This document shows positions 4,914 through 63,967 of a DNA stretch of 64,000 nucleotides, piece by piece (position 1 is the first letter of the stretch; each line of letters starts with the position of its first letter). Made by a program: the position numbers and the translations under genes. The stretch lies in the NCBI RefSeq assembly GCF_030684315.1, contig NC_081394.1, forward strand, positions 6,244,658 through 6,308,657, written 5' to 3'. This stretch comes from Stegostoma tigrinum. Taxonomy: Eukaryota. Below the pieces are notes generated by a model. The model worked only from the letters and a program-made list of their open reading frames with translations, did not search any database and had not been told where the DNA came from.

Positions 4914-5150
4914 TCACTTTGGCTGGAATTTGATCTCTGCATGTTCTGTGTCCTTGTCCCTGCGCACAGCCCCGTCTCTGCTGGGCAGCTTTGAGAAGAT
5001 GATATTGTCGTAGAGAAGGTCTTTATTTCCGTTTTGGTGTCTAGCATCTCCTACCACTGCACGAGCAAAGACAGCCCGGGGAGCTGGTGTCTCCCCAACT
5101 CTAGTGGTGTCCCGAGTTGTGTTCTGATGGTCAGTAACCACCAAGTTATC
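4914..5150 (-). pseudogene. A2 terminal cytoplasmic exon with ITIM-like LLYDNI and a mutated ITSM (TEHAEI)
   Basis: tcatag|GAT AAC TTG GTG..., phase 0, open to TGA at 4914. The ancestral acceptor (ctctgtag in the 37.77 kb copy) reads ctctgagg here. Confidence 0.8.
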
Positions 5151-6169
5151 CTATGATCCCCTCAGAGAAATTGAAACAGGAGATGTTCTCACACCATTTA
5201 CTGGCGTGGATAGGTTTAAATTATTGCACAACCTCATAAGAGTCAGTCGAGGATCAGGGGTTTAATCAGGGTTCACCCTTCTCTTTCTTACCTTGAAAAC
5301 TAAAGCTCATTGTTCACAGAGACTGAACATCACAAATACTCCAAGTGACTGAAGGGCTTCATTTATTGAACTGTAGTCATTGATGTAATGTAGGAAGTAT
5401 AGCAGTGAATTTGCACACAGCAAATCTCCCGACAACAGTATTAGAATAACTAACATCACATTTTTAATGGCTGTTTTGTTTGACGGAGATAGCGGAAGGC
5501 CCCAGACACTGAGGAGAACAGCTCCCCGCTTCTCTTTCAAATCATGGCCATGGGTCTTTTATCACCCTCCCAGAGGGCAGACGGTGCGGCTTAATGTGCC
5601 ATCTGAAAAATGGCATCTTCGACACTGCAGAGCTCTGTTAAAGGAATGGAAATGAAGATATTCTCACAATTTGCTGGCACATTTGGGGGAAGTTGCTGCG
5701 CAGCCTCATGAGTGTTATACACAGTTCAGTGAATTTAACTTTTTCCACCCACACCTCCCCTCTCCCTGTATCTGTCTGTCATACCGCGTGTCATTTCTCT
5801 CTCCACTTTCTAGTCTCTAACCTTTCTCACCCTTGAGTTACAGTGTCATAGTTTGTGTATCAAATTTGGATTTGAGTTCTCTTCTTGACTCAAATGGTAC
5901 ATTCCAAACACCTTCAGAGCCAGCATCTTTTAGAAGTGTATTCAATGCTATAGTGTCGGACGTGCAGCTGTGGTTCATGCACAGAAAGATTCCACAGCAG
6001 CAACACAATAAACAGTTGACACCAAACTTATGAACAATAAAATAAAGAACTGGAGATGCTGTAATTCTGAAACAATAAAAGAAATTGCTCAAAACTCAGC
6101 GAGTCTGAGAGGCTCTGGGAAAAGAAAGCGGCTTACATTTTGAGTCCATGACCCTTACTCAGAATGGGG

Positions 6170-6705
6170 TCAGCACCCTCAGTACTGCCCCTCCAAGTGT
6201 GCAGCACTCTCTCAGTACTGACCTTTCAACAGTGCAGCAGTCCCTCAGTACTGACCTTTCAACAGTGCAGCACTCCCTCAGAACTGACCCAATGAAAGCG
6301 TGGCATTCCCTCAGGACTGACCCTCCGACATGATGGGACTGCCTCGGTTCTGACCTCTGACAGTGCAGCACTCCCTCAGCATTGACCCTCTGTCAGTGCG
6401 GCACTGCCTCAGCTCTGACACTCTGACAGTGCGGCACTCCCTCAGCCCTGACCCTCCGACAGTGCAGCTCTCCCTCAGCACTGACCCTCTGACAGTGCGG
6501 CACTCCCTCAGCCCTGACCCTCCAACAGTGCGGTGCTCCCTCAGCACTGACCCTCCGACAGTGCAGCACTCCCTCAGCACTGACCCTCTGACAGTGCAGC
6601 ACTCCCTCAGCTCTGACCCTCCGACAGTGCAGCACTCCCTCAGCACTGACCCTCTGACAGTGCGGCGCTCCCTCAGCCCTGACCCTCCAACAGTGCGGCA
6701 CTCTC
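6170..6705 (+). repeat. 33-bp minisatellite (cagcactgaccctccgacagtgcggcactccct)n
   Basis: About 16 tandem units; produces the spurious 11-aa repeat ORFs in the track. Confidence 0.95.
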
Positions 6706-6729
6706 TAACATCCCTCTTACTGTTTCTCT

Positions 6730-6865
6730 CACAGTTTGGACAGAATCTGATCTGTGCATATTCTGTGTCCTCGTCCCTGTGCACAGTCAAATCACTGGGC
6801 ACCTTCAAAATGGTGATGGTGGTGGGGAGAAAGGTCTTGGATTTGTAAATTGCAACATGTCCCAC
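6730..6865 (-). pseudogene. Second, degenerate copy of the ITIM/ITSM terminal exon directly behind the A2 cytoplasmic exon
   Basis: KVPSDLTVHRDEDTEYAQIRF aligns with KLPSRDGAVRRDKDTEHAEIKF of the terminal exon; 1-nt insertion at caagacctttctc. Confidence 0.75.
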
Positions 6866-6917
6866 TGACTAAACGCTGAGCGTAAAGCTTTGGAGTGAGT
6901 GCAAACTGCTTCTGTAC

Positions 6918-6999
6918 CTGGTGTCTCACAGAGAGTTGACTGTCGGTCGGTGCATTCTCATTGGTCTTTGCAGCTGCCTCCTCAGCCGCTGTCTTCCTC
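6918..6999 (-). pseudogene. A2 membrane-proximal cytoplasmic exon
   Basis: NAGNAG acceptor tatagcag|G AGG AAG (phase 2, matches the TM exon); RKTAAEEAAAKTNENAPTDSQLSVRHQ; donor CAG|gtacag (phase 0, matches the terminal exon). Confidence 0.75.
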
Positions 7000-7314
7000 C
7001 TGCTATAACACAATATCACAGTGTGGTTATTGTAAATGAGGGAGTCAGTGCAGCACAGATACAGTTACATGTCTGGACGTTCTGTTGAAATGTGCTTTCA
7101 CTTCCCAAACAGGCTACATATTCCAGATCAAAACAAACCATGGTTTCTCATGTGGACACACAGCAATGGAAGGCCCACTCTGGATCAGAGGGACATGGGG
7201 GCCACATACAGAAGGAGTGTCTGGTCCCTCACCCCATAGGTACAGTCCCAAACTGAACTAATGAAAGTGGAAGCAAATATTCAGAGTAAAATTGAAAGAA
7301 GCATTTACACTTAC

Positions 7315-7413
7315 TTTTGCGCACACCGTAAGATGAAGATTCCAGCCAGGAAAGCAGTCAACATGATTCCAGCTGAGACCAATCCTACTGCCCATTCATT
7401 GCAGTCTCTCTCT
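7315..7413 (-). pseudogene. A2 transmembrane exon (uncharged TM)
   Basis: tttttacag|...ERDCNEWAVGLVSAGIMLTAFLAGIFILRCAQK|gtaagt. The (AG)n run at the acceptor puts it out of the expected phase 1 unless the acceptor slips by 2 nt. Confidence 0.8.
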
Positions 7414-7737
7414 CTGTAAAAACAGCCATCAAATACTGTGCTGTCATTTTGGAACAATGTTCTGATGTATCTCAGGTTCTCAGATAGTGTTGACGTTTAT
7501 TGTCCCTCCCTCATTGCCCCTTGAAAAGATGGTGGGTGGCTTTTTTCCTGAGCCACTGACTGGACACAAACAGAGAGAGGAGTTCAGAGCGTAGTTAAGA
7601 ATTAACCACATCAGTGTTTGAGACTGTAATCATGTATACACACAGACCAGGATAAAACAGCAGGTTTCCTTCACTAATGGGGCATTTGTGACCCACCTCA
7701 CAATCTCTGTCTTTATATCAATCAAACTCAGTAAAGT

Positions 7738-7867
7738 TATAATCGGAGATAATGGGAACTGCAGATGCTGGAGATTCCAAGATAATAAAATGTGAGGCTG
7801 GATGAACACAGCAGGCCAAGCAGCATCTCAGGAGCACAAAAGCTGACGTTTCGGGCCTAGACCCTTC
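7738..7867 (-). mobile_element. Short Penelope-derived terminal fragment with target-site duplication
   Basis: Near-identical to 22049-22170; flanked by direct repeat aactcagtaaagt (7725-7737 and 7868-7880). Confidence 0.8.
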
Positions 7868-8354
7868 AACTCAGTAAAGTGATCGATTCTCAACTCATTG
7901 CCACATTGCTGTTTGTGGCATCTTGCTTTGCACAAATTGGCAGCAACTCTCCCCATGTAAGAGCGGGCACCACCTTCATGAAGTACACCATGAGGAGGAG
8001 GTGCCAGTGTTGGGCTGGAGTGGAGAAAGTCAGAAGTTACATGACACCAGGTTATGGTGTAACAGGTTTATTTCAAATCACAAGCCGTCATGTGGTTTTC
8101 CCAACAACCTCTGACCAACATTGGGATAATCTTCATGTCAGGCCATTCAAAACAGAATGTCAGGAAGCACTTTCTTCATAAAGTGAGCTGGTAACCTGGT
8201 TTTTTCATGAACATACCCTGCCTGCCAAGAAAACTGTACTAGAAAATAAAATGAGACAACGCAGCAGTGAGTGGCGTTGGGGCAGATCATAGGGGAGAGT
8301 GGTGTTAAGTTGGGAAGGTGTCCAGCCCAATGGGTGGGGGTCTCACTGCGGGCA

Positions 8355-8474
8355 ATGAACAGAACAAGTTCCAACAATGAGCTGTGGTCGGAGATTCCTC
8401 ACGTTACATACAGGAAGACTGGGTAGAAAATGAACATAGAGCAGTGGAGAGCTCCATAACCATCACTGTACAGT
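8355..8474 (+). pseudogene. Inverted fragment of a Siglec-like third Ig (C2) exon
   Basis: MNRTSSNNELWSEIPHVTYRKTG/VENEHRAVESSITITVQ aligns to gene B exon 63686-63967; DYQC segment deleted; opposite strand to A2. Confidence 0.8.
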
Positions 8475-9411
8475 GTGGGACTACTGTTATATTTGTTCAG
8501 GGGCTGTCTGTGTCGGTGCGGCTTTCCCACTGTATTTTTCAAAAATGGGCTCCGAATTCCATGAGATACTTGAATTTGGAGAATATGGAGCAAAGAAAGA
8601 ATTATCGATCAGACCTGAATCCCTCAAAATGTATTACAAAGGTAGCTTAGACCCTAACTTTTTCTTATTTTGCAGGTAAATGTGAGGAACTGTGTTCCAG
8701 ATGCAATTTGATTCATCAAAGTACTTTACATTAAGTAAACACTGCAGCTAAAATACAACAAAGAAAAGAGGAATTGGAATAACTTAACTGTTTTGGAAAA
8801 CTTAACAAAGTAAGACTATTTAATGTCTAATGTCTAATTCCCAAAGCCTTGCTAACAATGAATCAGGGGTTCCAATTCCACATTTGCTGAATTATTTGTG
8901 AACCCCTAACACCTTACAGCACCAAGTCCTGAGCCCTAACTTTGCCATTTCGATCTGTCCAGTGGCTCCTAGGGCTTCTCCTGTTTCCTGGACTTCATTC
9001 AGCTTTAAAATAGCTTCTGGGAACGAATGCTGATCTTCACCCGGACAGAATCAGGACCCTTCAGCCACTTCCTCAGTAGCACAGCTAACCGCACTGATCC
9101 TGCATGGAGCCAGCCCCTGTTTCTCACCCTCTCTCTTTCTCTCACTGAGTATTCAATTCTTTCAACCTTAAACAGATTCTGACCCTTGAACTAATCTGAG
9201 TGAAATATTGAAAATGTTACAACTAACCTCGCCCTTATGTCTTGGCAGGATTGAATGGAGGAACCATTGGAATTCTTGTTCCATGAATATCAGAATCTTC
9301 ACTGCCTGCTTGTTCAAAGCAGCACCCGGTTAATCTAGAGTTTCCATTCCTTCAGCAGGGAATTGAAGCTTATACTGATGCTCCAGTACAACCCCGAGAG
9401 AGGGTCCAAGT

Positions 9412-9466: not shown

Positions 9467-9524
9467 GGACAATACGAATATATTCATAAGTGTGCACGCG
9501 ATTTTGAACTCTGTGAACACTCAC

Positions 9525-9594
9525 TTTGCACAGTGATAGCTATGGACCCAACAATTGCTCCATGGTCATTCTCTGCTGCACACTGATAGTCTCT
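9525..9594 (-). pseudogene. 3' half of an A2 C2-type Ig exon
   Basis: RDYQCAAENDHGAIVGSIAITVQ|gtgagt; 5' half missing. Confidence 0.8.
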
Positions 9595-11241
9595 ATCCAA
9601 AGTTAAAACTGTTATACAATCAACAATTTATAATTCAACTGATTTTCTAATTTCCTAAATTAACATAAGGTAAATATGGATAATAGTGAGTGTGGGGTTA
9701 CTATGGCAGCCAGAGGTGTATTTTGTTCATTTTTTTTATGAAGAGGGGTTGAAAAAGAGATTCCAAGCAGTGTGCTCCAAGCCAACAAAATGCACAGCTT
9801 TCGAAATGTTTTTCTTTTAATATTGTAACAATAGAAGTGGCATGGAAGTGTGAAGTCAGGATCCCACAGAACCAGGATCTTAGCTTAACTTTCAGTAGCT
9901 GTCGGAATTTGGAAGCTGCTATACTTCTCTCCCTGCTACAGCAAAACCCCTGAATTATCTCTTTCTCTCAGAGTTTCCTCTTGATGTTCTGAAGGAGAAA
10001 ATTGCATGTGAGACAATGCATTTTACTGAATTTGTCTTTTCCAAGCACAAGTTTGTGGGAAGTTTCTGCATTGGAACAGTTACAGTTTAGTAATTAAATA
10101 TTCCATTGTTCTGTTGAATAGAGTTAAGTTATTCTAATTCATCTTTCTTTCGACAGTATTTAACTATGTGTGTAAGAGTAATGTATGTTTTGCTTCAAGC
10201 TTGGTAGCTCAACTAATTGCATCTGGGACAAAATGCATTACATTTGCCTTTAAGAGTAATAAAAAATTGGCACATAGACTATTTTCTGAATATTTCGGTC
10301 AGACATAAGTAATTCTGAGATTGTTCAGTATTGCTCAATTGAAACCTAGTGTGCAGCATATCTGTATCAGATGTCAGTTTGGCCACAGCGAGGGCCATTG
10401 TGCACAGTTCTGAAAACAACATGACAGGGCGGATGTGATCAAACTGGAGAAGGTGCAGAGGGGATTTACCAGGATGTTGCCTGGGCTGGAGAGTTTCAGG
10501 CATGAAAAATTGATTGGATTGACTGGGGTTGTTTTCCCTTCAGGCAGAGCAGACAAAGGCAGCGGGGGTGGGGGGGGGGGGCGGTGGAGGTGGACATCAT
10601 TGAGATGTAAACAGTTGGTACAGGAAGATACTCCTATATTTTAATTTATTCATATAATTTTTCATCAGGGATGAGGGTGATGCTTGTTAGGCCAGCTATG
10701 AATGCCCATCCCTAATTGCCAAGAAGGCATTTAAGATTCAGCCACATTGCTGTGTGTTTGGAATCAAATGTAGGCCACACCAGGAAAGCACCACAGTTTT
10801 CCTCCCTAAAAACCCTGGGTTTTTCGTACAATTGACGGTGGATTCATGGTCATCATTAGACACGTAACGCCACATTCTTTATTGAATTCATATTCCCTAT
10901 CTGTGAGATTCGAACCCAGGTCCCCAGAACATTACTTGGGTCTCCACATCAACAGTCCAGCAATAATACTGCTTGGTCATTGCTTTCCTGACCACATTGT
11001 CATAACAGTGTCATAACATAACACTGAAGAGCTATTTAGATGTGCATTGTTTATTCCAAAGAGCACATTGCTTTGGTTAAGTGCTGGATAAAGGGATTAT
11101 AACAGTTAGAGTTTGTTTCTGTTTAGTACAGGCTCAATGGGCAGTAGGGACTTTCCACTTATTTAGATCTCTGGGATTTGGGGTTTTTTTTGCTGTTCAG
11201 TTAATGATGTACAACTTTGAATGAAGGATAGTCATACTTAC

Positions 11242-11413
11242 GTTGTAGTGACAGCTGAGTTACAGTGTTTGACTGATTCACGTACGGCTGTAGGAGTGTC
11301 ACAGGTTAAGGCAGGAGCAGTTCCACTGCACGCTTTGTTGAAGTTGCAGCTTAGGCTCACACGCTTTCCTGCGATAATTTCCTCCGGTAATATTATCGGA
11401 TTATCTGTGATGT
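11242..11413 (-). pseudogene. A2 second Ig (C2) exon with internal deletion
   Basis: gtgttag|AC ATC...DITDNPIILPEEIIAGKRVSLSCNFNKACSGTAPALTC(W->C)DTP...; more than 100 nt missing relative to 25807-26105; donor gtaagt retained. Confidence 0.85.
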
Positions 11414-13675: not shown

Positions 13676-14007
13676 CTAAAACATCAAGATGGGTTTGAGG
13701 AAAGTGAATGAATTTCTTTTTGTTATTGAATTCAACTCTGAAAAAAAAATGTTGATTATTATCAGGGGAAGAGTTTCTATCTCACAGGTTTCCAGACAGC
13801 TGGGTCTGATGGTGGAACTATATTGATGTGTGACTGCGATCCTTGGAATGAAAGTTTATGAATGATGCTCCCTGATTCTTATTACTGAACCAGTTTCCAT
13901 CTTGTAGTTAGTTTGCAGATGTGAAGGATAGTTGTAACAACATGGAATGTTTGTGCACAGGGACCTTCCTATACTGTCATCGCACCTGACACCATAATGC
14001 TGTAGAC
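13676..14007 (-). pseudogene. A2 V-set exon, decayed
   Basis: ctctccccag|...IPCCYNYPSHL...LSGNL*D...FFRVEFNNKKKFIHFPQTHLDVL|gtgag; paralog of 26802-27167 including flanking intron; essential Arg (FRVE) still visible. Confidence 0.85.
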
Positions 14008-16553: not shown

Positions 16554-18620
16554 GAACTATTTTCCCACGAATATCTTTACCAACAAATTCTGACTTCCTG
16601 CCTTCCTAGTCAGGAATACTCTAGCCAACATCGTAACACTATCCGATACCTCAAGGACAAAAGATTGCCCTGCAGAATAATTTAAGGAGTTAATCACAAG
16701 AAAGCTGACAAGCCAATACTGAATGTAACAAGGAACAAAGAAGCTATTTCTGATAAGAAAGCAAGTGCAGGCTTGGTGTTTACAGGGGAGTAATCAAAGA
16801 GTCTAAAATATCATCAGTAATGTCATAGCATAGACCTGTAGGTGGAGGAGCTGGATAAGGATTCCTCTGCAGCCAAACTTCAAAGAACACCAGTGCACAA
16901 GATGAAACCCTGGATATCAGAGACAGACACGATTGATTGGAACTGCAACTAAATTCCACCATTAATCAGGAGATAACCAAGTTGAATTGTGAGGTTTAAC
17001 TTGGGGTGGGGATAGGGCCTTATTTTGGTTGCTAAATGGAAGAAAGTTTAAATTGCTGTTTCGGTTCTTGATTGTGTGTAAGATTTCTTAATAAGTAACT
17101 GAACTAAACATAGCTGCTGTTGATTTAGCCGCAACTTTTTTATTCACATGTTTCTGGGACCCACCTCATTAATCTTCCCTGCACTGCCTCCAGTGCCTCT
17201 GCATCCATTCTATAATATACAGATCAAGTCTGCATACAGCACTCCATGCATGGTCTGAGCAAGGTTTGATACAGTGTCTTAACACCATGTTCCTACATTA
17301 TAATGGTTACCTTCTAGAAATGAAGTGCACTGCTTGATTTGTTACTTTGAGGCTTTGCTCACCCATGGAGCAGCGACGAATAATTGATGCATTTGTACAA
17401 CATAACCCCTGTGTCCCACAAATACCACTTCTCTGTTTTTCCTGTCAAAATGAGCACATTGTCCTTTGTTGGTATAGAAGTTGATTATTGCTGAAAAGAG
17501 AGCTGAGTTTTTGAAGCTTTCATCTCATGGTCATCAGGTCAGACTCGAGAACAATGAATTTCAAAGGGAACAACAATCCATCCTGCATGAAAAACAGCAG
17601 GCAGAATCTGGTGAAGACACGTCATGGAGAATTCACCAGAGAACGGTTATCACCACAAGCTTTTGTTTAAATCTCAAACAGCCAAGTTGGCTCTGATTGG
17701 TGACCTGTTGCTGGAGACCAAAGGTAAAGTACTACGCATGCTGGAAATCTGAAACAAACTCTGAGACCGTTGGAGAAACTCAGCATCAGTGAAGAGAGAA
17801 GAGTTTGAGTAGCTCTTCTGAACTAAAAGTTATTGGAAAATACGTTTTTATTTAATGCTTTTGACAGAGGCAGATGGTACAGAGGCCTAATGAAAATGAC
17901 AAAGGCATTGCAGAAAGAAAAAAAAAGTCTAAAGGTTGTAAATTAAAATGTGATAGGGAGAGAATCAGTCCATGCTGCATATTGTTATATTGATGATTCT
18001 GATACAGCATCAGAGACTGACTGGTCCCCAAGGTCAGCACTGACCCTACTGCAGCAGACAGTATGAAACACTGGATCAAAGTGCCCTGACCTGAACTCTG
18101 CATGTGCTGACAGTAAATTTAAAAACGGAATTGAATGTTGACACCTTCTGCACCTCTCTGTCCGTTATCTCATACCCTTACTGAGGTTTCTAACACAGTA
18201 AGAATGCACAGGAAGTGTGATACAGATCAACCTGTCTGTCTGAGAGCTGCTGTGTTGTCTTCATGGGCAATTCTGATGAAAATAAGTATGAGACATAAGT
18301 TTGAGAAAATAAGTATGAGACATAAGTTTGAGAAAATTGTAATTGGACTAGCTTCAGAATAAACATCATTCCCTAGTTTTAATTATGGCTTACTCCTCTA
18401 GATCTGTAATGTACACTGCAAGATCTCTGTGCTCCCCCACTACACTTGTTAGACTGGGAACCAGTATACATGCGTGAGCACAGGGTGATGGGGGAAATGG
18501 ATTTGGTGTGAATGTGTAGAATGGCTCATTGCTGAATTGATTCCCGATCATAGTTCAAGAAGAACCATCTTTTAGAAAGGCTATTAAATGTAAATCTGCC
18601 TAAACTGTCAATGATATTAT

Positions 18621-18660
18621 CTTGGAGAAGTGACAGCAGGAAGTAAAATTTCCCGATCAT
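18621..18660 (-). pseudogene. A2 leader (signal peptide) exon with dead splice donor
   Basis: ATG ATC GGG AAA TTT TAC TTC CTG CTG TCA CTT CTC CAA G|ataat (MIGKFYFLLSLLQ); paralogs have G|gtaat. Confidence 0.9.
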
Positions 18661-19069
18661 TGTCCACTCCCAGATATTTCATCAGCTTCTCCCTCTTATA
18701 CTCTGAAAGAGAAAGACTTAGCAAGGCCTCATATCTTGTCCAACAGCTCTCAAGAAATTAGAACTGCTTTTCGACAATGTCCTTACAAACAACTTTGATT
18801 CTCTGTGGGATGGTAGGCACTCAGCTGGGAGCTACAAGGCTTCAGGAAAGTAAAGTATTGAAGGACTTGACATTCTGTAGTGCCTTTCACCTCCTTGGGC
18901 TTTACTAAAGCTTGTGCCTCTGCACGTCCCTCATCAGTTGGCTCAAAAGATGTTCTGCATGACCGACCCGAGCCTTATGGCCAGGTATCAATCAACAGAA
19001 CTCTTTGAAGGCATCAATCACTGGAACCTATCTGTACAAAGTCACAGTATCAGCGACGGATGATGTTGA

Positions 19070-19750
19070 ACCTAGAAGTGAATTCCTGTCGTTACATTAT
19101 TTACCCTGGACCTGTCCGACTGCTCACCTGAGGAGTAACTGCCCACACACTCTGCCTGGCTGGAGCGGCATCTTCCTGTGCCACCTCCCTTGTGTATTTA
19201 ATTCAAATTGTCAATGTGTCACTGTGAGTGAGGTCGGGAAGTAGGTACAAAGTGAGAAGGTGATCGCGCTATTGTCTCTGCGCAGAGCTGGGCAGCATTT
19301 AACATGATTTTTAGGAGGCTGAGCAGGTTTTCCCCCATTCCTGCGTAACAGACGGAACAAGGACAATTGGGCCTCCTGCTGCTCCTGAATAAAAGGCTGG
19401 AGGGTCTGAGTGAACCTCATTCTGTTTGTGTCTAACAGGAATCGAGGGCCTGAGCTGGTCCTGTTTGTGAGTAATAGGCCCAGGGCTCAATAATAAGTAG
19501 GGATTTGTTGAAGGCATCAGTCGTTGGAATCTGTGTTTGTGAAGTCACAACCTCATCAAAGCTATTGGTTGTGGAAGTGAATTGGAACAGTTCCATCACT
19601 CATCCATGGCCTTATCCAAAAGCTCGCCTGGGCAGTAACTGCTCGGTCACTCTGCTTGAACCGAATGGCCTCTTCCTGTAATGCTACCTGCTGTGTGTTT
19701 AATTAACAAGTGGAGATGTGTGACTGTGTCAGATTAAGGAAGCCGGGAGA
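19070..19750 (-). promoter_or_regulatory. Two tandem promoter/non-coding first-exon modules of A2
   Basis: Modules ~19070-19260 (donor CAGG|gtaaat at 19105) and ~19560-19750 resemble each other, 30020-30720 and (inverted) 50930-51120; GGAA Ets cores and an AT-rich TATA-like box. Confidence 0.55.
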
Positions 19751-20908
19751 CATTTACAAAATATTGCTTTCATTTTAAATAGTTGTTCGTTTAAGCCTAA
19801 CTCTGTGATATTTCTGTTCGGAGCTAGGCAGCTGATCACATAGAGTTGTGGCTCTGGGGGATTTTAGTACACTTTCTTTTATTCTAAGGCAGAAAATTGG
19901 GAGATGGAGTTGCCAGTCCAGAATCTCAAATCCTGTGTTGATATATTTTTGCATAATTTGCAAATTAGCAGCAAACATAGGCCATTCTACCCCTGGATCG
20001 CACTCTACCATTCAGTATGAACACAGCCGATGCGTTGAATTATACATTGCCATCTATTCCCGATAACCTTCGATTCCCTTACCTAATACGAATATATCTT
20101 TTACTGAGAACTATTCAAATACTCGCTCTCCACAGCCATCTGAGGCAGAATTCTAAAGCTCCAAAAAACACTGACAGAAAAATTTTTAATCTGTGTCAGA
20201 AAAAAATGACTCCTCATTTTCATCCGGTTCTGTACTGGCTCAGTACATGTTCATCTTGTCAAGGCTATTTAGGACCTTATAGACTTCAATCAGGTCTCCT
20301 TTCACCATTCTAAACTCCAATTGAAACAGTCCCAGTCTATCCACTCTTTCTCTGCAAGAGAGCTGACTCACTCCAGGAATCAATCAAGAAAACTTTCTTG
20401 AACTACCACCAATGTGTTTATATCCTTCCTTAAGCAAAGAGACCAAACTGCACAGGAGGCCCTGCAAAACTGAAGAATCACATCCTTACTCTTCTGTTCA
20501 ATTCCTCTCATAGCCAGTCAATACTCCCTCCAAACTCGTGTCTTTTTGCCCTGTACCATATGATACTATTCTTTGGAGTGACTTTTTGAGTAACGGCTTA
20601 CTAAATGCTTCTGAAATTCCAAACACAATTGATGACAAGATTCCCTTTATCCACAGCACATGCTGATGCTTGAAAGAACTGCAATGATGGTTAACACACC
20701 TTCTCCTTTACACGCTTGGATGACTCTGGCTGACCAACTTCTGTTTTTCTGAGTATGCCCAGTGTCACAAGCAACCAGGGGAAGTACTCTTTTCTCGAAG
20801 CCGAGATCTTGAGCGGTTGTACTGCCTGGGGGTGGATAGGACTCTTAAAGGGTCAGTACTGAGAGAGTGCTGAAATTGCAGTGTTAATACTGATGGTGTG
20901 CCACAGAA

Positions 20909-22045: not shown

Positions 22046-23708
22046 TGTGATAATGGGATCTGCAGATGCTGGAGAATCCAAGATAATAAAATGTGAGGCT
22101 GGATGAACACAGCAGGCCCAGCAGCATCTCAGGAGCACAAAAGCTGACGTTTCGGGCCTAGACCCTTCATCAGAGAGGGGGATGGGGTGAGGGTTCTGGA
22201 ATAAATAGGGAGAGAGGGGGAGGCGGACCAAAGATGGAGAGAAAAGAAGATAGGTGAAGGGGAGAGTATAGGTGGGGAGGTGGGGACGGAATAGGTCAGT
22301 CCAGGGAAGACAGGTCAAGGAGGTGGGATGAGGTTAGTAGGTAGGAGATGGAGGTGCAGCTTGAGGTGTGAGGAAGGAATGGGTGAGAGGAAGAACAGGT
22401 TAGGGAAGCAGAGACAGGTTGGACTGGTTTTGGGATGCAGTGGGTGGAGGGGAAGAGCTGGGCTGGTTGTGTGGTGCAGTGGGGGGAGGGGATGAACTGG
22501 GCTGGTTTTCGGATGCAGTGGGGGAAGGGGAGATTTTGAAGCTGGTGAAGTCCACATTGATACCATTGGGCTGCAGGGTTCCCAAGCGGAATATGAGTTG
22601 CTGTTCCTGCAACCTTCGGGTGGCATCATTGTGGCACTGCAGGAGGCCCATGATGGACATGTCATCTAAAGAATAGGAGGGGGAGTGGAAATGGTTTGCG
22701 GCTGGGAGGTGCAGTTGTTTATTGCGAACCGAGCGGAGGTGTTCTGCAAGCGGTCCCCAAGCCTCCGCTTGGTTTCCCCAATGTAGAGGAAGCCACACCG
22801 GGTACAATGGATGCAGTATACCACATTGACAGATGTGCAGGTGAACCTCTGCTTAATATGGAAAGTCATCTTGGGGCCTGGGATGGGGGTGAGGGAGGAG
22901 GTGTGGGGGCAAGTGTAGCACTTCCTGCGGTTGCAGGGGAAGGTGCCGGGTGTGGTGGGGTTGGAGGGCAGTGTGGAGCGAACAAGGGAGTCACGGAGAG
23001 AGTGGTCTCTCTGGAAAGCAGACAAGGGTGGGGATGGAAAAATGTCTTGGGTGGTGGGGTCGGATTGTAGATGGCGGAAGTGTTGGAGGATGATGCGTTG
23101 TATCCGGAGGTTGGTGGGGTGGTGCATGAGAACAAGGGGGATCCTCTTTGGGCGGTTGTGGCAGGGGCGGGGTGTGAGGGATGTGTTGCGGGAAATGCGG
23201 GAGACACGGTCAAGGGCGTTCTCGACCACTGTGGGGGGAAAGTTGCGGTCCTTGAAGAACTTGGACATCTGGGATGTGCGGGAGTGGAATGCCTCATTGT
23301 GGGAGCAGATGCGGCGGAGGCGGAGGAATTGGGAATAGGGGATGGAATTTTTGCAGGAGGGTGGGTGGGAGGAGGTGTATTCTAGGTAGCTGTGGGAGCT
23401 GGTGGGCTTGAAATGGACATCAGTTACAAGTTGGTTGCCTGAGATGGAGACAGAGAGGTCCAGGAAGGTGAGGGATGTGCTGGAGATGGCCCAGGTGAAC
23501 TGAAGGTTGGGGTGGAAGGTATTGGTGAAGTGGATGAACTGTTCGAGCTCCTCTGGGGAGCAAGAGGCGGCGCCGATACAGTCATCAATGTACTGGAGGA
23601 AGAGGTGGGGTTTGGGGCCTGTGTAGGTGCGGAAGAGGGACTGTTCCACGTAACCTACAAAGAGGCAGGCATAGCTGGGGCCCATGCGGGTGCCCATGGC
23701 CACCCCCT
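22046..23708 (-). mobile_element. Penelope-like retroelement (5'-truncated; RT C-terminal half + GIY-YIG endonuclease)
   Basis: ORF 22666-23703 has MGTRMGPSYA, YIDD and VVYCIHC...YIGETKR; one frameshift continues into RLQEQQLIFRLGTLQPNGIN; flanking ttgacc direct repeat. Confidence 0.95.
22146..22173 (-). ncRNA. Minimal hammerhead ribozyme core in the Penelope terminal repeat
   Basis: CUGAUGA-AGGGUCUAGGCCC-GAAA-CGUC; Penelope-like elements are known to carry minimal type I hammerheads. Confidence 0.75.
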
Positions 23709-29323: not shown

Positions 29324-29441
29324 ATGGTGTAGGTTTGTAGAGAGGCTCACTGCTGATTTGGTTCCTAATCAGGCCTCAATAAGAATGAACTTTAACAATG
29401 ACTATTAACTATAAATCTGTCCTAGCTAGCAAAGATATTAC

Positions 29442-30720: not shown

Positions 30721-30823
30721 TAAAATAAAGGAAGCTCTACTTTCGTTGTAAATAGTCGGCCATTTAAGCCCGAGTCGGTGATATTTCTGTTTGGAGCTGG
30801 GCAGCTGATCACATAGAATTTCT

Positions 30824-44570: not shown

Positions 44571-45376
44571 CTGAGAGGTGGCAAATGGAGTTTAATGCAG
44601 ACAAGTGTGAGGTGATGCACTTTGGTAGGAGTAACCAGAAGGCAAAGTCCTGGGCTAATGGTAAGATTCTTAGTAGTGAAGATGAGCAGAGAGATCTCGG
44701 TGTCCATGTACACAGATCCTTGAAAGTTGCCACCCAGGTTGACAGGGCTTTTAAGAAGGCATACAGTGTTTTAGCTTTTATTAATAGAGGGATCGAGTTC
44801 CAGAACCAAGAGGTTATGGTGAAGCTGTACAAAACTCTGGTGCGGCCGCACTTGGGGTATTGTGTACAGTTCTGCTCACTGCATAATGAGAAGGATGTGG
44901 AAGTTTTGGAAAGGGTGCAGAGGAGATTTACTAGGATGTTGCCTGGTATGGAGGGAAGGTCTTACGAGGAAAGGCTGAGGGACTTGAGGCTGTTTTCATT
45001 AGAGAGAAGAAGGTTGAGAGGTGACTTAATTGAAACATATAAAATAATCAGAGCGTTAGATAGGGTGGATAGGGAGAGTCTTTCTCCTAGGATGGTGACG
45101 GCGAGCACGAGGGGGCATAGCTTGAAATTGAGGGGTGAAAGATATAGGACAGATGTCAGAGGTAGTTTCTTTACTCAGAGAGTAGTAAGGGAATGGAACG
45201 CTTTGCCTGCAACGGGAGTAGATTCGCCAACTTTAGGTACATTTAAGTCGTCATTGGAGAAGCATATGGACGTACATGGAATAGTGTAGGTTAGATGGGC
45301 TTGAGATCGGTATGACAGGTCGGCACAACATCGATGGCTGAAGGGCCTGTACTGTGCTGTAATAGTCTATGTTCTC
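44571..45376 (+). mobile_element. Young CR1 LINE 3' fragment nested in an old Penelope remnant (~44100-46010)
   Basis: 234-aa open ORF2 C-terminus (MEFNADKCEVMHFG...LYKTLVRPHL); CR1 tail. Confidence 0.9.
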
Positions 45377-46160
45377 TGTTAAGTCCGAGACAGACAATAG
45401 ACAATAGACAATAGGTGCAGGAGTGGGCCATTCGGCCCTTCGAGCCAGCACCACCATTCATTATGATCATGGGTGATAATCCACAATCAGTATCCTGTTC
45501 CTGCCTTATCCCCACAACCCTTGATTTCACTATCTTTAAGAGCTCTGTCCATCCCTTTCTTGAAAGTATCCAGAGGTGTTGGCCAGAGAACCGGGTGTTA
45601 TGTTGAAGTGGCAAGCAACTGGAGGTTCAGGGTCTTTTTTTACAAACAGAATACAAGTGTTCTGCAAAGCAGTCACCCAGTTTATGTTTTGTTTCTTCAA
45701 TGCAAAGGAGACATTGTGAGCAGTGAATGTAGTGGACTAGATCATGTGACGTTCAGTGTAAAGTGCTGCTTCAATTGGAAGGTGAGTTTGGATCCTTGGA
45801 TACTGAGGGAGGAAGGAAGCAAATAGGTGTTCAAGCTTCAGCAGTTGCAGGGGAAGGTGCTGTGAGGCTGTGGCGAGGTGTTGGGAGTGAAAGGAGAGTG
45901 GACCAGGGTGTCCCAGAGGGAACAGTCCCTGAAGAAGGTTGACAAGGGAGGGGACAGGAATATGTGTTTGGTAGTGACATCTCACTGGAGGTGGTGGAAA
46001 TGATGGTTATTGATCCTAAGGGAGAAAACAGATGATTGAATTCAACCAGAGGTTCTGTAAAGAAATAGAATTTTCCATGGGGGAATATCCGTACAACAAA
46101 ATCTGTAGGAGTGAGAAAACTGCTTTGTTGAAACTGAAAATAACATAGATAAATACATAG

Positions 46161-46984
46161 AAAAGCTGCAGAGCTGGGCTGAGAGGTGGCAAATGGGGTT
46201 TAATGCAGACAAGTGTGAGGTGATGCACTTTGGTAGGAGTAACCAGAAGGCAAAGTCCTGGGCTAATGGTAAGATTCTTAGCAGTGCAGATGAGCAGAGA
46301 GATCTCGGTATCCATGTACACAGATCCTTGAAAGTTGCCACCCAGGTTGACAGGGCTGTTAGGAAGGCATACAGTGTTTTAGCTTTTATTAATAGAGGGA
46401 TCGAGTTCCGGAACCAAGAGGTTATGCTGCAGCTGTACAAAACTCTGGTGTGGCCGCACTTGGAGTATTGCTTACAGTTCTGGTCACCGCATTATAAGAA
46501 GGATGTGGAAGCTTTGGAAAGGGTGCAGAGGAGATTTACTAGGATGTTGCCTGGTATGGAGGGAAGGTCTTACGAGGAAAGGCTGAGGGGCTTGAGGCTG
46601 TTTTCGTTAGAGAGAAGAAGGTTGAGAGGTGACTTAATTGAGACCTATAAGATAATCAAAGGGTTAGATAGGGTGGATAGGAAGAGCCTTTTTCCTAGGA
46701 TGGTGACGGCAAGCACAAGGGGGCATAGCTTTAAATTGAGGGGTGAAAGATATAGGACAGATGTCAGAGGTAGTTTCTTTACTCAGAGAGTAGTTAGGGT
46801 ATGGAACGCTTTGCCTGCAATGGTAGTAGATTCGCCAACTTTAGGTACATTTAAGTCGTCATTGGAGAAGCATATGGATGTACATGGAATAGTGTAGGTT
46901 AGATGAGCTTTAGCTTGGTATGACAGGTCAGCACAACATCAAGGGCCGAAGGGACTGCACTGTGCTGTAATGTTCTATGTTCTA
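46161..46984 (+). mobile_element. Young CR1 LINE 3' fragment
   Basis: 234-aa open ORF2 C-terminus, highly similar to 44571-45376. Confidence 0.9.
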
Positions 46985-49049: not shown

Positions 49050-49290
49050 TATCCTCCAACAGTGCAGCACTCCCTCAATACTGATCCTCCAACAGTGTGG
49101 TATACCCTCAGAGCTGACCCTCCAACAATGCAGTAATCCCTCAGCATTGACCCTCAGTGCAGCACTAACTCAGTACTGACCCTCTGACAGTGCAGCACTA
49201 ACTCAGTATTGACCCTCCGTCAACGTGGTACTCCCTCAGTACTGACCCTCCAGCAGCGAGACATTCTCTTAGTACTGACCCTCCAAAATT
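49050..49290 (+). repeat. 33-bp minisatellite, short array
   Basis: About 7 units of the same family. Confidence 0.85.
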
Positions 49291-51813: not shown

Positions 51814-51853
51814 ATGATTGGGAAATCTTATGTCCTGCTGTTTCTTCTTCAAG
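51814..51853 (+). CDS. Gene B leader exon (Siglec/MAG-like)
   Basis: ATG ATT GGG AAA TCT TAT GTC CTG CTG TTT CTT CTT CAA G|gtaatg (MIGKSYVLLFLLQ); acceptor ttttctttcag at 51785. Confidence 0.9.
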
Positions 51854-54714: not shown

Positions 54715-56705
54715 GCAGCTCTGAAAGTGTGCACTCACTTAGTACTGACCTTCTGAAAGTGTGACACTCCTACAGCACTGACCTTTCAACAGTAGACCAC
54801 TCCACAAGTACTGATGCTCTGACAATGCAACCTCCCTCAGCACTGACCCTGCGATTGTGCAGCACTCCATCACTACTGATCCTCCGACACAGCGGCACTC
54901 TCTCAGCATTGACCCTCTGACAGAGCAGCACTCCCTCACTACTGACTGTCCGACATTGCAGCACTTACAGTGCAACACACCCTTACCACTGATGTTCTGA
55001 TGGTGCAGCACTCCCTCAGTTCTGACCCTCCAACAATGCAGCACTCTCTGTACTGACCCACTGACAGTGCGGCGCTCCTACAGCACTGATCCTCTGACAG
55101 TGCGGCGCTCCTTCAGTACTGACCTTTTGACATTGCAGAACTCACTCAGTACTGAGCCGTCCGAGAGTGCGGCATTCCCTTGGTAATGAAATTCCAACAG
55201 TGCAGCAGTTATTCAGTACCGACCTTTTGGCAGTGCAGCACTCCCTCAGCACTGACCCTCCAACAGCAGTCTCTCAGTACTGAAACTCCCACATTTCGGC
55301 CCTCCTTCAGCACTGACACTCCGACAGCGAGCAACTCTCTCAGAATTGATAGTCTAACCCTAAGCCTAACCCTAACCCTATCGCAAGTGCAGCCCTTCCT
55401 CAGTACTGACCAATTGGTAGATAGCACACTCTCAGTACTGACCCTCCAATAGTGCAGCTCTCCTTCAGCACTGACCCTCAAGAAGTGGGCAACTCCCTCA
55501 GTACTGATGCTCTGACAGTGCATCCCTCCGTCAGCATTGACCTACTAGTAGGGCAGCATTCTCTTACTACTGACCCTTCAACAATGCAGCACTACTTCAG
55601 TAATGACCATCCAACAGTGCAGCACTGCCATCAGTAATGACCCTCCAACAAGGCAGCACTCCCTCAACACTGACCCTCCGACATTGCAGCACTTCAGTAC
55701 TTACCCTCTGAGAATGCAGCATTTTGTTGGTAATGACCCTGTGACAGTGCAGCACTCCCTCACTACTGACCAACTGACGCTGCAGCACTCAGTCAGCATT
55801 AGATCCTCCGACAGTGTAGCACTCCCTTCCTACTGATCCTCTGATGATGCAGCACTCCCTCAGTACTGACCCACCGACAGTGCGACTCTCCTTCAGCACT
55901 GACCCTCTGATAGTGTGGCACTTCCTCAGTACTGACCGTTCGACACTTTAGCACTCGCTCAGTAGTGAGCCATCTGAGAGTGCAGCACTCCCTTGGTAAT
56001 GAAATTCCAACAGTGCAACATTACCTCAGTACTGACCCTCGAACAGTGTAGCACTCCCTCAGTACTGATCTTCCAACATTATGGCACTCTGTCAGCACTG
56101 CCTCTCCGACAGTGAGCAACTCCCTCAGTATTGGACCCTCTGACAGCGGCATTGCTTCAGCACTGACCCTCCCATACAGCGCCGCTCCTCAGCACTGACC
56201 CTCCAACAGAGTGGTGCTCCCTCAGCATTGACCCTCCGACAGAGTTGCGCTCCCTTAATACTGACCCTTCAACAGTGCGACAGTCCCTCAGTACTGGCCC
56301 TCTGACAGTGCAGTACTCCCTCAGTACAGATCCTATGACAGAGCAGTGTTCCCTCAGCACTGACCCTTCAACACAGCGGTGCTCCCTCAGCACTGACCCT
56401 CCAACACAGCAGCACTCCCTCAGCACTGACCTTCCGACAGAGCGATGCTCCCTTAGCATTGACCCACTGACAGCTACCTCATCACTGATCCTCCCACAGT
56501 GTGGCACTCCGTCAGCCCTGACCCTTCGACAGTGTGGCACATCCTCAGCACTGACTCTCCGACAGAGTGGCGCTCCCTCAGCAGTAACTCACTGACAGAG
56601 CGGTGCTCCCTGAGCACTGACCCTCCAACAATGTGGTTCTCCCTTAGCACTGACCCTCCGACAGTGCGGCACTCCCTCAGTAGAACATCCGACAGTGCGG
56701 CACTC
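54715..56705 (+). repeat. 33-bp minisatellite, ~2 kb array in gene B intron
   Basis: Tandem units; a further inverted array lies at ~57885-58130. Confidence 0.95.
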
Positions 56706-57398
56706 TGGATCTCAGGATCTTCCCAGTCTCAACAAAACCCCAATGAGCTATGCTCCCAACCTGCTCAACCTTGTCTCAAGGTCTGTCATAATCATCAGGG
56801 GCTTTTGTGACCCAGTAACTGCATTGCATTTTATTCATTTTAGTTTTGAATTTTTTAAGTATCTCTTGCAGTGTTGACAAACTTTAATCTGCTTTAATTT
56901 AGCCAATTAAATCTGAATAAAATAGCTCAAAACACTCACTTTATAAGACCCTTAAAATGGAAGAGTCAATGATGTATCCTCTTGTGGACAAGTCCAGAAC
57001 TAGCTAACTCGAAGTTAAAATTACAGGTCACCTTTTAAAAACAGAGCATGTGTGACTTTGGGACTCTCTGCCTCAGAAGGCAGTGAAAATGGGAACAGTG
57101 AATATTTTTAAAGTGGGGGAAGGGGGTAGATTTTTGATCAGCCAAGAAATCAATGGCTATTGGGGAGAGATGGGAATGTGGAATTCTAAACACAAACTGA
57201 TCAGACATGACCTTATTGATTGGTGGAACAGGATTAAGGGGATGAATGGCCTACTTCTGCTCCAGATTCAGATGTTCACACACACTATGTGCTGTTATCC
57301 ATGTAAACAGTCAACCAGATTACCCTGTATTCTATTTCCAAATACAATCATAATCGGTTCCGTAATGTCCGGTACCTCTCCCTGTCTCTCTCACTCAG

Positions 57399-57755
57399 GC
57401 GTGGCAACAGAAGAATGGACCATGACAACTGCAGCTCGGAAGGCTATCAGTGGTTCATGTGTGGTTTTACCCTGTACCTTTGACTTTCCTTCGCACCCTT
57501 ACAAGGCCGTGCAGGGAGCTTGGTTTAAATACTGGTATTACTGGAAATACGCTGTCGTCTACAGCAAAGACCCCAATTATGGGATGCCCACCTTTGTTGG
57601 ACGTACAGGTATAATTGGAGACTTGGAGCAGAAGGATTGCTCCTTGAAAATTAACAACCTCAGGCCTGAAGACAGTGACAACTATTATTTTTATGTGGAT
57701 GTGGAAGGATTCGACGTTTACACCTTCAAAGAACCAGCCCATCTAAAGGTTCTTG
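57399..57755 (+). CDS. Gene B Siglec-type V-set Ig exon
   Basis: 357 nt, phase 1-1, tcactcag|GC GTG...GTT CTT G|gtaagt; EEWTM, SGSCVVLPCTFDFP, GAWFK, FVGRTGIIGDLEQKDCSLKINNLRPEDSDNYYFYVD: Siglec three-Cys pattern. Confidence 0.95.
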
Positions 57756-58534
57756 GTAAGTCCCAGAACATGTGACAGTCCATCAGTTCAGGGGGATATG
57801 GGCCATACCTCTTAGGCTGAAAGTTGTGAGTTCAGGTCTTACTGCAGGAGGTATCAACATGAACTTCAAATGGGTGTGATCCCAGACTGCTGCACTGTTG
57901 GAGGGTCAGTACTGAGGATGTGCCCCACTGTGGGAGGGTCAATACTGAGGGAGTGCCACACTGTCGGAGGGTCAGTGATGAGGGAGTGCCGCACTGTCAG
58001 AGGGTCAGTGCTGAGATAGTGCCACACTGTCAGAGGGGTCAGTACTCAGGGAGTGCCATACTGTTGTTGGGTCAGTACAGAGGGAGTGCTGCACTGTCGG
58101 AGAGTCAATGCTGAGGGAGCACTGCATTATTGACAAATTGGTAGATGAGTCTAATAAGTGCCGATTATGTTGGTTCCCACTTCTGCCACATCACTGAGTG
58201 ATCAGCCATGATCATACTGAATTGTAGGGCAGGTTTGAAGGGCTGACTCCTGTTTTCTAAGTTTCTAAGAGGAGTTGTAATCTGGAACTCGCTGTCTGCA
58301 AGGTGGGGTAGAAGATGTTTTGATCAATCATTCCAAAAGAAAACTGGATGGACACTTGAGGGAAATAAATTCACAGAATGATGGGAAGTGGTCAGGATTG
58401 CTTGGGCATGGATTGGATTGGGCTATTGCCCTTGAGTTTTTAAGAGTCCAGATTCCAATCCCAATACAAAACTATAGAATCAACCCAAATACATTTCCAA
58501 AGAATGCTATCATCTGGCTATTTTCATTTTACAG

Positions 58535-58822
58535 ATGTTCCTGACCGTCCTGAGATGTTACTCCCGAGGGATTTACGGGAAGGGACGTCAGCTTATATAA
58601 TCTGTAAAGCCCTCCACACTTGCCCTGATAACCCTCCCAAACTGACCTGGAGTGAGCTGCCATCTTCCTCAGTCAGTGACACCACAGAGAGCGAGGGCGA
58701 GATTTTTACAGTGCTGACCTTTAACCCTTCACACATACACCACCATCAAACTGTCCGCTGTACTTGTGAATACCCTCAAACCAACCATCGAGTGTTCAAC
58801 TCGGTCACCTTGAGTGTGAAGT
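58535..58822 (+). CDS. Gene B second Ig (C2) exon
   Basis: 288 nt, phase 1-1; DVPDRPEM...IICKALHTCPDNPPKLTW...LTFNPSHIHHHQTVRC; the extra HTCP Cys is the expected partner of the V-set Cys. Confidence 0.95.
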
Positions 58823-61800: not shown

Positions 61801-63685
61801 ACATAAGGAAATTTGCTGTTCTTATTGGGGCTGTCCTTCTTGTTACCCCAGTCCCACAGCAAGATAGTTGATTCTTAACAGTCCTCTGAAACAGTCCCAA
61901 CAAGACAGTCAGTGTGGAACTGGAGGAAGACACCAGGCCAGGCAGTATCAGAGGAGCAAGAAAGTTGACATTTGGGGTCTGGACCCTTCTTCAGGAAAAT
62001 GAAGAAGGTTGTGCATTTGAGTATTATATCACATAATCATACCACAGGTGAGGCAGATAGAGAATGTGCGAATACCTGGCAATCCAAGAGAAACAGGCAG
62101 GTAATGCATTAGTTCCCCATGGTCCCACACAGCAGCTGGTTTTCTGTCTGGATGCTGGTGACAGATCTCTGGAGAAGCACAGCAGCACACAAGGCCAAGA
62201 TACCATGGGTGGCCCAGATCTACAGGGGAGGTGAGGGAAGAGTGGAAGTGCAGTACCAGGTGGGGATTCTTTAGGGATAGACAAATATTTCTGCAGCTGT
62301 CAACTCTGACTCCAAGCTAAAATACAGACAGATTCTAAACAAGGCCTCACATCTAACATGCATTGCATGACCTGAGATGTTTCCTCTGGTATAATAATAA
62401 AACCTTTAGTTATCTCAGGGCAGTGACTTGAAAGAAATTCTTGGATTTTCATATTTATGAACAGAAATCTGCATCTTCTTTCTAAGCGATTAAAGATTTA
62501 ACAGTCATCTTAGATTTGTTCAATACATTCATATCAATGATGCGTATAAATTTTTTGCGTATAAATTTTGTGTCCGATGACGGAGGAAGGACAGAGACTC
62601 CGAAAACATAGGTTTTCAAATAAGCCTGTTGAACTATAACCCGATATCGTATGATTTTTGACAATGCCACTCTAAGATAGTGTGATGCTCGCCAGAGTCA
62701 GGGATTTCATAGGACAATCCTTCTGGGTGAGCGAGAACAGCTGGAAGATGATGTGGCCAAATTGGGTCGACAAGCTCTGTGTAGGCTCAGGTTTGCTCAC
62801 ACAGCTGCTGAAAAGCTAACTGAAGGTCACTCCTTCTGTGCGGTAGCAGCACATGAAGAGGTCCCAGCCACCATCTGAACATCCCATTCCGTTCAACCTA
62901 GGAACTTGTCGTTGCAGCTATGTTAGGACTCAGAAGTAGTCCAGGGAGCCAGTAGCTAAATGTTGGAATAAGGATTTAGAAAAAAAAGGCCTGGAATTCA
63001 TTTATTCATTCAGAATAAATCCAGTGGTATGTCAGAAAGAAATTCGACTTCCATATTTAACATTGAGATATGATGAACCACAGTGTCATTAATATCTGGG
63101 GTACTGCTCAAAGATCTGTTTTCACCTCATTTTTCATTAAATGTGCTCTAGAATGTCTTTAATCACAGTTTATTTGTTAGTCATATTGATCTCAGTTTAA
63201 TTCTGGATGTCAGAATATATGTGGTACATACATTGGAGACTGTCCCTCTGCATCAGAAATCTTATTTCTGTTTATTCAAAACTATTGAATCACGTGGCTT
63301 TATTTTCTTAGTAAATATCTGACAAATCAAATGCTTTCTACTTGCTAAAATGAACAGACTGGCCAGCAGACAGATTTTGGCCTGATCTGGAGTGGAGTCA
63401 TACCGTATCACTTAATAATGCAATGAATAAATATTATCCAATAGCTGACAAGAACCTGGGGTCATACTGAGGACATGAAAATAACTTTTTTTTCTTTCCC
63501 AATGGATAGCAGCTCTGGTGGTGAGAGAAAATAATGACAGCTTACGTGTGCAATATCCATTAGAAGTATCACGTAGAAACTTACATAGCTGGAAAGTGAA
63601 TGAAAAATCAGAAGCACCAAATGCAGAAAAGACAGAGTTATGCTGTGCACTGTTCTGTCACAATATTCTCTTCCTTCACTTTCAG

Positions 63686-63967
63686 ATGCACCACAGAATC
63701 TCTCAATTACTTCCCCTCATATAATTCAAGGTTCATCAATCAATATAAATGAGGGGAATTCTGCAGTGCTAATCTGCTCTGTTGAGAGTTTCCCAGCTTC
63801 TAATCTGATGTGGAGACATCTTAATGCCACAATGAACAAAACAAGTTCCAACAATGAGCTGTGGTTGGAGATTCCTCACATTGCACACAGTGAAACTGGA
63901 GACTATCAGTGTTTGGCAGAGAATGCACATGGAGCAGTGGAGGGCTCTATAACCATCACTTTGGAAT
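63686..63967 (+). CDS. Gene B third Ig (C2) exon; gene continues beyond the window
   Basis: 282 nt, phase 1-1, ctttcag|AT GCA CCA...TTG GAA T|gtgagt; YAPQNLSI...EGNSAVLICSVESFPASNLMW...ETGDYQCLAENAHG; correct frame absent from the ORF track. Confidence 0.95.

Follow-up and report, generated by a model that had tools for sequence, protein, structure and literature searches.

Here we analyze a 64,000-nucleotide stretch of the genome of the shark Stegostoma tigrinum (called the window below; G000:C53:6,244,658-6,308,657, where C53 is its own contig in the searched genome of 3.2 Gb) and the Siglec-like receptor genes that it contains. We consider it probable that the window holds a part, now decaying, of a shark Siglec-like family with two alternative ends, one a tail with immunoreceptor tyrosine-based inhibitory and switch motifs (ITIM and ITSM), the other a transmembrane segment (TM) carrying an Arg (TM-Arg). 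Three gene bodies with leader, V and C2 exons lie in the window, two of them (A2 and A1) on the minus strand and one (B) on the plus; A2 reads as dead, A1 as probably dead, and only B, of the inhibitory type, as intact. The original prediction, made from the letters of the window, was of a cluster of paired activating and inhibitory receptors. That picture survives at the level of the family, where two genes farther along the contig, X and Y, have matched ectodomains and opposite ends, and fails for the two genes on which it was built, A1 and A2. All gene structures given here are exon models of this analysis or database annotation models, as distinct from transcripts.

All three predicted gene bodies were found, and the V exons of A1, A2 and B match the Pfam families V-set and Ig_CD22. 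We searched an AlphaFold model of the A1 V domain (mean predicted local distance difference test score 86) against 48,161 chains. The best structural match is sialoadhesin (Z 18.9, root-mean-square deviation 1.6, 115 aligned), followed in ranks 2-6 by MAG (18.1, 17.1), Siglec-15 (16.5), CD33 (15.4) and Siglec-5 (15.3), with unrelated V domains close behind at 15.3-15.0. MAG is the top sequence match among solved structures for both the B V exon and the full gene Y protein. The Siglec architecture (an N-terminal V-set domain of Siglec fold, then C2-set domains, in a type I membrane protein) is seen in B, X and Y and in the V exon of A1. The essential Arg of the F strand is present in A1, X, Y and a further gene, Z, and in 159 of the 177 V-domain motif matches, while the Siglec cysteine pattern (an intra-sheet pair and a Cys joining V to C2) is retained in X, Y, Z and the V domain of B. 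The polymeric receptor pIgR took the top phmmer rank as closest family through the sum of five weak domains and was overruled by the Pfam, MAG and structure matches. A genome search with the A1 V exon gives 34 matches, mostly on C53, where they form three clusters near 1.4-1.8, 6.1-7.2 and 16.2-16.8 Mb.

Judged by its exons, A2 is a pseudogene, dead in this assembly. Its parts, together with the homologous 5' region, are as follows:

4914-5150, minus strand: last cytoplasmic exon, in which the ITIM LLYDNI is preserved and the ITSM (TEHAEI) has His in place of Tyr
6702-6868, minus strand: what is left, within an intron, of another segment coding for an ITSM (TEYAQI); 81% like the end of the exon at 4.9 kb
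6918-6999, minus strand: first cytoplasmic exon, open
7315-7413, minus strand: uncharged TM exon; 2 extra nt past the canonical acceptor compared with the paralogue at C53:6.200 Mb
8353-8499, plus strand: third Ig (C2b-type) exon, inverted fragment
9496-9594, minus strand: third Ig exon, 3' fragment
11240-11413, minus strand: C2 exon, frameshifted, breaking off after about 160 nt
13676-14007, minus strand: V-set exon with 4 in-frame stops and 5 indels
18621-18660, minus strand: leader coding segment, with AT instead of GT at the splice donor
18504-20685, minus strand: 5' region, 65-74% like A1 29325-33684 in collinear patches

The uncharged TM exon and the ITIM expected of A2 are thus in place, and the expected ITSM has lost its Tyr. 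The tandem homology proposed for A1 and A2 is real over the leader exon and upstream non-coding sequence (18.5-20.7 kb in A2 versus 29.3-33.7 kb in A1), though patchy, at 65-74% in collinear blocks; the two most distal blocks read like pieces of the repeat CR1. The leader region of B is 72-78% identical to those of A1 and A2. As a separate observation, the 3' half of A2 (4934-9298: the scrambled Ig fragment, TM and cytoplasmic exons, ending abruptly within the ITSM) recurs at 97-98% identity on unplaced contigs. The copies stand in a repeated unit (L138-L141 on G000 contigs C403, C831 and C30; also C404, C453, C499 and C749); two on C403 are spaced 20,670 nt apart, and the last exon has eight matches.

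A1 retains the following parts:

24271-24398, minus strand: terminal TM-Arg exon (24398-24271), with a stop after a short tail and no ITIM; Ala to Thr, Val to Asn and Glu to Lys relative to the gene X copy
25825-26105, minus strand: C2 exon; first canonical Cys lost, splice donor deleted (20 nt)
26802-27167, minus strand: V-set exon, open, essential Arg retained; conserved Trp, interdomain Cys and Phe altered
29442-29481, minus strand: leader coding segment, donor intact

The TM Arg and short tail ascribed to A1 are therefore present as predicted. Alignment with five intact paralogues places the loss of the C2 donor in a 20-nt deletion. Contigs of all four public runs (at most two samples from one study, one possibly the assembly's own source) cover 25300-25931 and show no difference from the window, the deletion included, so an assembly error is unlikely; contigs of these runs over the A1 region, their kind unrecorded, contain no splice-like joint. 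No RNA run turned up for this region, which says nothing about expression. The V domain deviates at 4 of 36 conserved columns, where the median among 155 domains is 1, and the Siglec cysteine pattern is broken, the interdomain Cys being gone from V and the first canonical Cys from C2. The leader and V exon keep open frames and canonical splice sites. From these features A1 is probably, not certainly, dead. A neighbouring observation concerns the V exon and next intron (26516-27170), which match G000:C53:6,166,569-6,167,382 at 98.6% over 353 nt with flanks at 73-83%. The latter is an inverted pseudogene copy, its V exon split by an insertion resembling a short interspersed element, and the A1 V region and this dead copy likely share a conversion tract.

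Could A1 and A2 still be a working activating/inhibitory pair? They stand in tandem, their 5' regions are homologous, and both kinds of gene end are present. Against this, A2 has a dead leader donor, a V exon with stops and indels, a C2 cut short and an ITSM in which His has replaced Tyr, A1 is without its C2 donor in the contigs of four runs, and the two V exons are only 67% identical. We give a working pair next to no credence; it is already refuted for this assembly, and A1/A2 is a decayed tandem cassette. A subtler alternative, which we think unlikely, is that A1 is functional but rewired. Skipping the C2 exon is predicted to give an in-frame 177-amino-acid V-only receptor with the TM-Arg end, and reading through it a 234-amino-acid soluble V-C2 form, also in frame, that could act as a decoy; a third route would splice V to the inhibitory tail of A2, as in the SIGLEC14/5 fusion. 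The open leader and V exon with their splice sites and essential Arg speak for this, as does P0024, one of the 157 database protein models compared (P0001-P0157), which joins the A1 ectodomain to the A2 tail and omits the TM-Arg exon. However, the altered V columns include Trp, Cys and Phe, two of the V changes are common to a neighbouring pseudogene copy, the TM carries polar substitutions, and the A2 TM exon is in frame only via a weaker acceptor 2 nt downstream. The window shows P0024, the database model of the locus, glossing over a lost splice donor.

B is the remaining gene. Its exons in the window are:

51814-51853, plus strand: leader coding segment
57399-57755, plus strand: V-set exon, intact; Tyr at the essential-Arg position
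58535-58822, plus strand: first C2 exon, intact
63686-63967, plus strand: third Ig exon, intact

The original prediction left the tail of B outside the window, and there we recovered it. The gene extends 14.5 kb beyond the window and, read with the neighbouring stretches, forms an 837-amino-acid frame of 11 exons: leader, V, six C2-type domains, an uncharged TM and a tail with ITIM LTYSQL, a second ITIM with Gln in place of Tyr, and an ITSM-like TDYAQI. The database model P0131 corresponds to B minus one Ig exon, and the first coding intron holds one stretch of 128 N. On this frame B is intact and of the inhibitory type. Its Tyr aligns to the essential Arg of MAG, so that the essential Arg itself is missing; by the criterion given in excerpts of PMC6288428, V domains of this kind would not bind sialic acid. 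All 24 B-type proteins compared, from carpet, mackerel, cat, saw and sevengill sharks and two batoids, have Tyr at this position, and B-type V domains form a separate clade (support 100/99). Read by its V domain, B is Siglec-like and is no canonical sialic-acid binder or partner of the sialic-acid type. We also observe that the Tyr-type V lineage (57399-57755; P0131-P0152, P0029, P0012), found across sharks and rays, is joined to several different C2 series and tails.

The pairing itself is best seen in X and Y, which lie at C53:16.67-16.79 Mb, 10.4 Mb from the window on the same contig. X (minus strand) and Y (plus strand) stand head-to-head with their leaders about 56 kb apart. X is a leader-V-C2-C2-TM(Arg) gene of 369 amino acids with an open frame and canonical splice sites, two broken exons being skipped; Y, the database model P0083, has two ITIMs and one ITSM. 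At the amino acid level they are 93% identical in V, 94% in the first C2 and 98% in the second. Closely matched ectodomains are found in X/Y and also in P0052/P0054 (V 95%) and P0002/P0009 (96% over 376 amino acids), one member ending in an ITIM tail and its partner in a charged TM followed by a short tail.

Along the DNA, the identity of X and Y (500-nt windows) stays at 94.8-99% for about 6 kb, a stretch that begins about 2.5 kb upstream and extends across the V exon; it is 76-93% in the aligned parts of the intron after V, returns to 94-98% over the next two C2 exons and then falls to 65-82%, and farther upstream there is no alignment. Between X and Z, which has an inhibitory tail, an island of 97.5% at the V exon is flanked by sequence at 66-87%. 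Such a patchwork in X/Y is likely the product of gene conversion. Inverted duplicates are common in this cluster, and a recent inverted duplication followed by purifying selection on the exons might produce the likeness of X and Y with no conversion at all. We regard this as distinctly improbable: a single duplication gives one level of identity, whereas here identity rises and falls within one collinear block, and upstream and intronic DNA is as alike (97-99%) as the exons while nearby introns are at 76-93%.

Turnover of the activating copies is evident from gene order. In the stretches read, the layout with a TM-Arg exon upstream and an ITIM gene downstream on the same strand occurs four times on C53 (in the window, in an inverted duplicate at 6.166-6.206 Mb, and on the upstream side of both Y and Z), and the TM-Arg gene is broken at all four. 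Among five TM-Arg copies tied to the V family of A, X and Y, only X has a complete open frame. Birth-and-death evolution, as originally proposed, is plain from these sequences, with a seemingly fast death of activating copies.

Do activating V domains share a history of their own? The V-domain phylogeny indicates that V and tail have separate histories. In a tree of 40 rows, picked out of 177 domains so that most of the activating ones were covered along with their neighbours, the activating label requires 9 changes for 10 rows, and a topology that unites five activating V domains, one from each species, in a single clade is rejected (approximately unbiased test, p-AU 6e-45). In 13 of 15 activating V domains, the closest inhibitory V from the same species is nearer than the closest activating V from any other species; one of the 15 has a core shared with an inhibitory model, and one comparison came close to a tie. 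These comparisons rest on annotation models, in which false joins are possible; as they stand, activating V domains appear for the most part to cluster with inhibitory genes from the same species or genus. The A-type V domains of sharks form one elasmobranch clade (99/99), apart from sialoadhesins, the expansions of ray-finned fish and a tetrapod clade resembling CD33-related Siglecs (99/98); the shark and tetrapod clades are joined only at 27/81, over 122 columns and with only 2 of 6 rows of the tetrapod clade named as such in the database. Because the A-type V domains are a clade of their own, the pairing most likely arose inside the shark expansion. The system had been called ancient or independently evolved: an ancient origin shared with the mammalian pairs is unsupported, and an independent one fits better.

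The TM-Arg exon has a wide distribution. A DNA search gives seven copies, all seven matches on C53, and an eighth copy there is degenerate, with a stop at the Arg codon. Ten of the 157 protein models, from four other shark species (Scyliorhinus canicula, S. torazame, Carcharodon carcharias, Chiloscyllium punctatum), have it at the end of Siglec-like V-C2 ectodomains, which bears out the predicted joining of this exon to Siglec-like Ig exons, as far as annotation models tell. Isoform series, which usually point to transcript support in this annotation, are present for some of these models. In all ten the Arg lies between hydrophobic runs, with Glu at +19 and no Tyr after it; the Arg sits about 8 residues deep in a hydrophobic stretch of 26 residues. 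Because three shark orders have the exon, it must date back at least to the ancestor that they share, some 200 million years ago. This age is a lower bound because the taxon searches were not exhaustive: the returned models of rays, skates, sawshark, sevengill shark and Heterodontus contain no TM-Arg end. On C53 the exon is also found at the end of long arrays that belong to another, more distantly related family of Ig exons (1,439,841; 1,544,375; 1,811,298; L056-L058, L108, L110, L112). V exons sought for the TM-Arg copies at 1.44, 1.54 and 1.81 Mb gave only two V-like fragments in the stretches read. The presence of the exon behind this second Ig family suggests a portable activating module.

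What would this module bind? Receptors that have a basic TM residue and a short tail recruit an adaptor with an immunoreceptor tyrosine-based activation motif (ITAM), whereas ITIM/ITSM tails recruit SHP phosphatases (excerpts of PMC6288428 and PMC13358205). Receptors of the leukocyte receptor complex (LRC; LILRA, Fc-alpha-RI, GPVI, OSCAR) that associate with FcR-gamma have, in excerpts of PMC6557307, an NxxR motif and an acidic residue C-terminal in the TM; the shark exon shares with them the Arg in the outer third and the acidic residue at the cytoplasmic end, and differs in having no NxxR or DYT motif and an unrelated ectodomain. The genome holds two TM exons of the TCR-zeta/FcR-gamma family. 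A search for the DAP10 family, insensitive to tiny exons and hence no sign of absence, gave no match in the genome. Given an Arg in the outer third of the TM together with an acidic residue at its inner end, as in LRC receptors, we lean by analogy towards FcR-gamma as the partner, at a little better than even, with DAP12 a serious contender. It is also conceivable, if quite unlikely, that the exon is an anchor for tail-less decoy or adhesion forms and has no activating role. An Arg near the outer membrane face, at this depth in the hydrophobic stretch, could snorkel; there is no NxxR motif, and adaptor binding is a prediction from sequence. Yet Arg and Glu at +19 are invariant in all ten models across three orders, and activating Siglecs are defined by the combination of a charged TM and a short tail (PMC6288428, in excerpts).

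Taken together, these observations suggest a cycle. The ITIM/ITSM tail is predicted to inhibit, the TM Arg would pair with the acidic residue of an ITAM adaptor, likely of FcR-gamma type, and activate, and gene conversion would keep the ligand-binding domains of the activating and inhibitory twins alike. Pathogens that exploit inhibitory receptors may select for activating twins, which would then be lost quickly, as has been argued for SIGLEC14 and SIGLEC16; for the shark, exploitation or mimicry by pathogens as the driver is an analogy. In its widest form, which we judge about evenly balanced between true and false, the proposal is that galeomorph sharks evolved paired Siglecs independently of mammals: a portable TM-Arg exon, wired to FcR-gamma instead of DAP12, would have been joined time and again to inhibitory Siglec-like ectodomains (as well as to a second Ig family), matched to them by conversion and quickly discarded, alongside a Tyr-for-Arg V lineage of sharks and rays that would read a different ligand.

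Several points weigh against these readings. X may itself be decaying, given its two skipped broken exons, and the database search returned no protein identical to its V exon. No TM-Arg end occurs in the returned models of five other galeomorphs (Mustelus, Cetorhinus, Rhincodon, Hemiscyllium and Chiloscyllium plagiosum). Three residues before the Arg all ten models have Leu, not the Asn of NxxR, and the adaptor of mammalian activating Siglecs is DAP12 (excerpts of PMC4042635 and PMC6288428). Within the window, A1 may not be fully dead, as its leader and V exon are still open, and P0024 has two residues at the end of C2 with no genomic coding at that place (models can fuse neighbours); seven patterns tried for a micro-exon supplying them found none.

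The rest of the window and its surroundings yield a few further features, among them one more exon:

37773-38019, plus strand: orphan exon of ITIM/ITSM type with one stop and one frameshift, beside a CR1-like insertion

A minisatellite of about 33 nt is dispersed in the introns of the window genes (6167-6710, 34300-37030, 49050-49290, 54715-56710, 57885-58133) and yields spurious Cys/Arg-rich frames. Retroelement pieces lie at 22666-23751 (minus strand), 37247-37745 and 44571-46983; the first is a 361-amino-acid reverse-transcriptase-like frame between A1 and A2. Three CR1-like 3' ends are 93-95% identical, two of them in tandem. At G000:C53:6,454,198-6,526,363 a neighbouring Siglec-like gene has about 14 near-identical tandem C2-type exons, several on a repeat of about 5 kb (database name "hemicentin-1-like," P0048). 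Five models (P0001, P0002, P0003, P0005, P0008; basking shark, catsharks, rays) carry 3-7 tandem Siglec V-set domains and may be real receptors or merged genes.

Among known systems the closest is SIGLEC11/SIGLEC16, described in excerpts of PMC5701461 as head-to-head genes with a conversion tract over upstream sequence and the V-set exon and with frequent dead activating alleles. X and Y match it in layout, in the tract's reach over upstream sequence and the V exon and in their ITIM and charged-TM ends. They differ in the spacing of the leaders (about 56 kb in the shark, 9 kb in human), in having a larger, patchy tract, and in V domains that are a clade of their own. From sequence comparison the shark system looks like an elasmobranch-specific, independently evolved parallel. 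The SIGLEC5/SIGLEC14 pair consists of adjacent genes with partial gene conversion, over an exon range that the tract in X/Y also covers, and a fusion allele sets the inhibitory product under the activating promoter (excerpts of PMC4042635). The shark tandem cassette and P0024 resemble the adjacent genes and the fusion allele; however, the tandem partners in the window are 67% alike in V and both broken. Siglec-14, which uses a TM Arg, signals via DAP12. MAG/Siglec-4 and sialoadhesin/Siglec-1 are the best sequence and structure matches and have the same V-set cysteine pattern as intact shark members, but the shark family is a multigene expansion with ITIM/ITSM or TM-Arg ends, and C53 has a separate sialoadhesin-like V exon. 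That exon (L107, G000:C53:1,732,045) has the essential Arg and groups with tetrapod sialoadhesins (97/87). The modular domain immune-type receptors of skates are activating and inhibitory Ig receptors of cartilaginous fish; by their usual description they have a CD300/TREM-like V, not a Siglec V-C2.

CD33-related genes have reportedly been found in non-mammals before. Our literature search, which covered few subscription journals, found no publication on paired Siglecs in sharks. In the portions available, the whale shark genome paper names Siglecs once, as a jawed-vertebrate family (PMC8455134), a table of PMC13262535 places the Siglec group with tetrapods, and a 2020 paper on teleosts gives fish genomes as being without inhibitory CD33-related Siglecs (PMC7226832). 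The shark paired system is real in sequence and apparently undescribed.

The window itself is mostly the graveyard side of this turnover and matters less. Paired Siglecs matched by gene conversion have been described from primates. If our proposal is true, a separate expansion in sharks with activating twins of its own would mean that jawed vertebrates came to the same solution twice, and the counterbalance idea, that activating twins answer pathogens hijacking inhibitory receptors, would become testable in an independent lineage.

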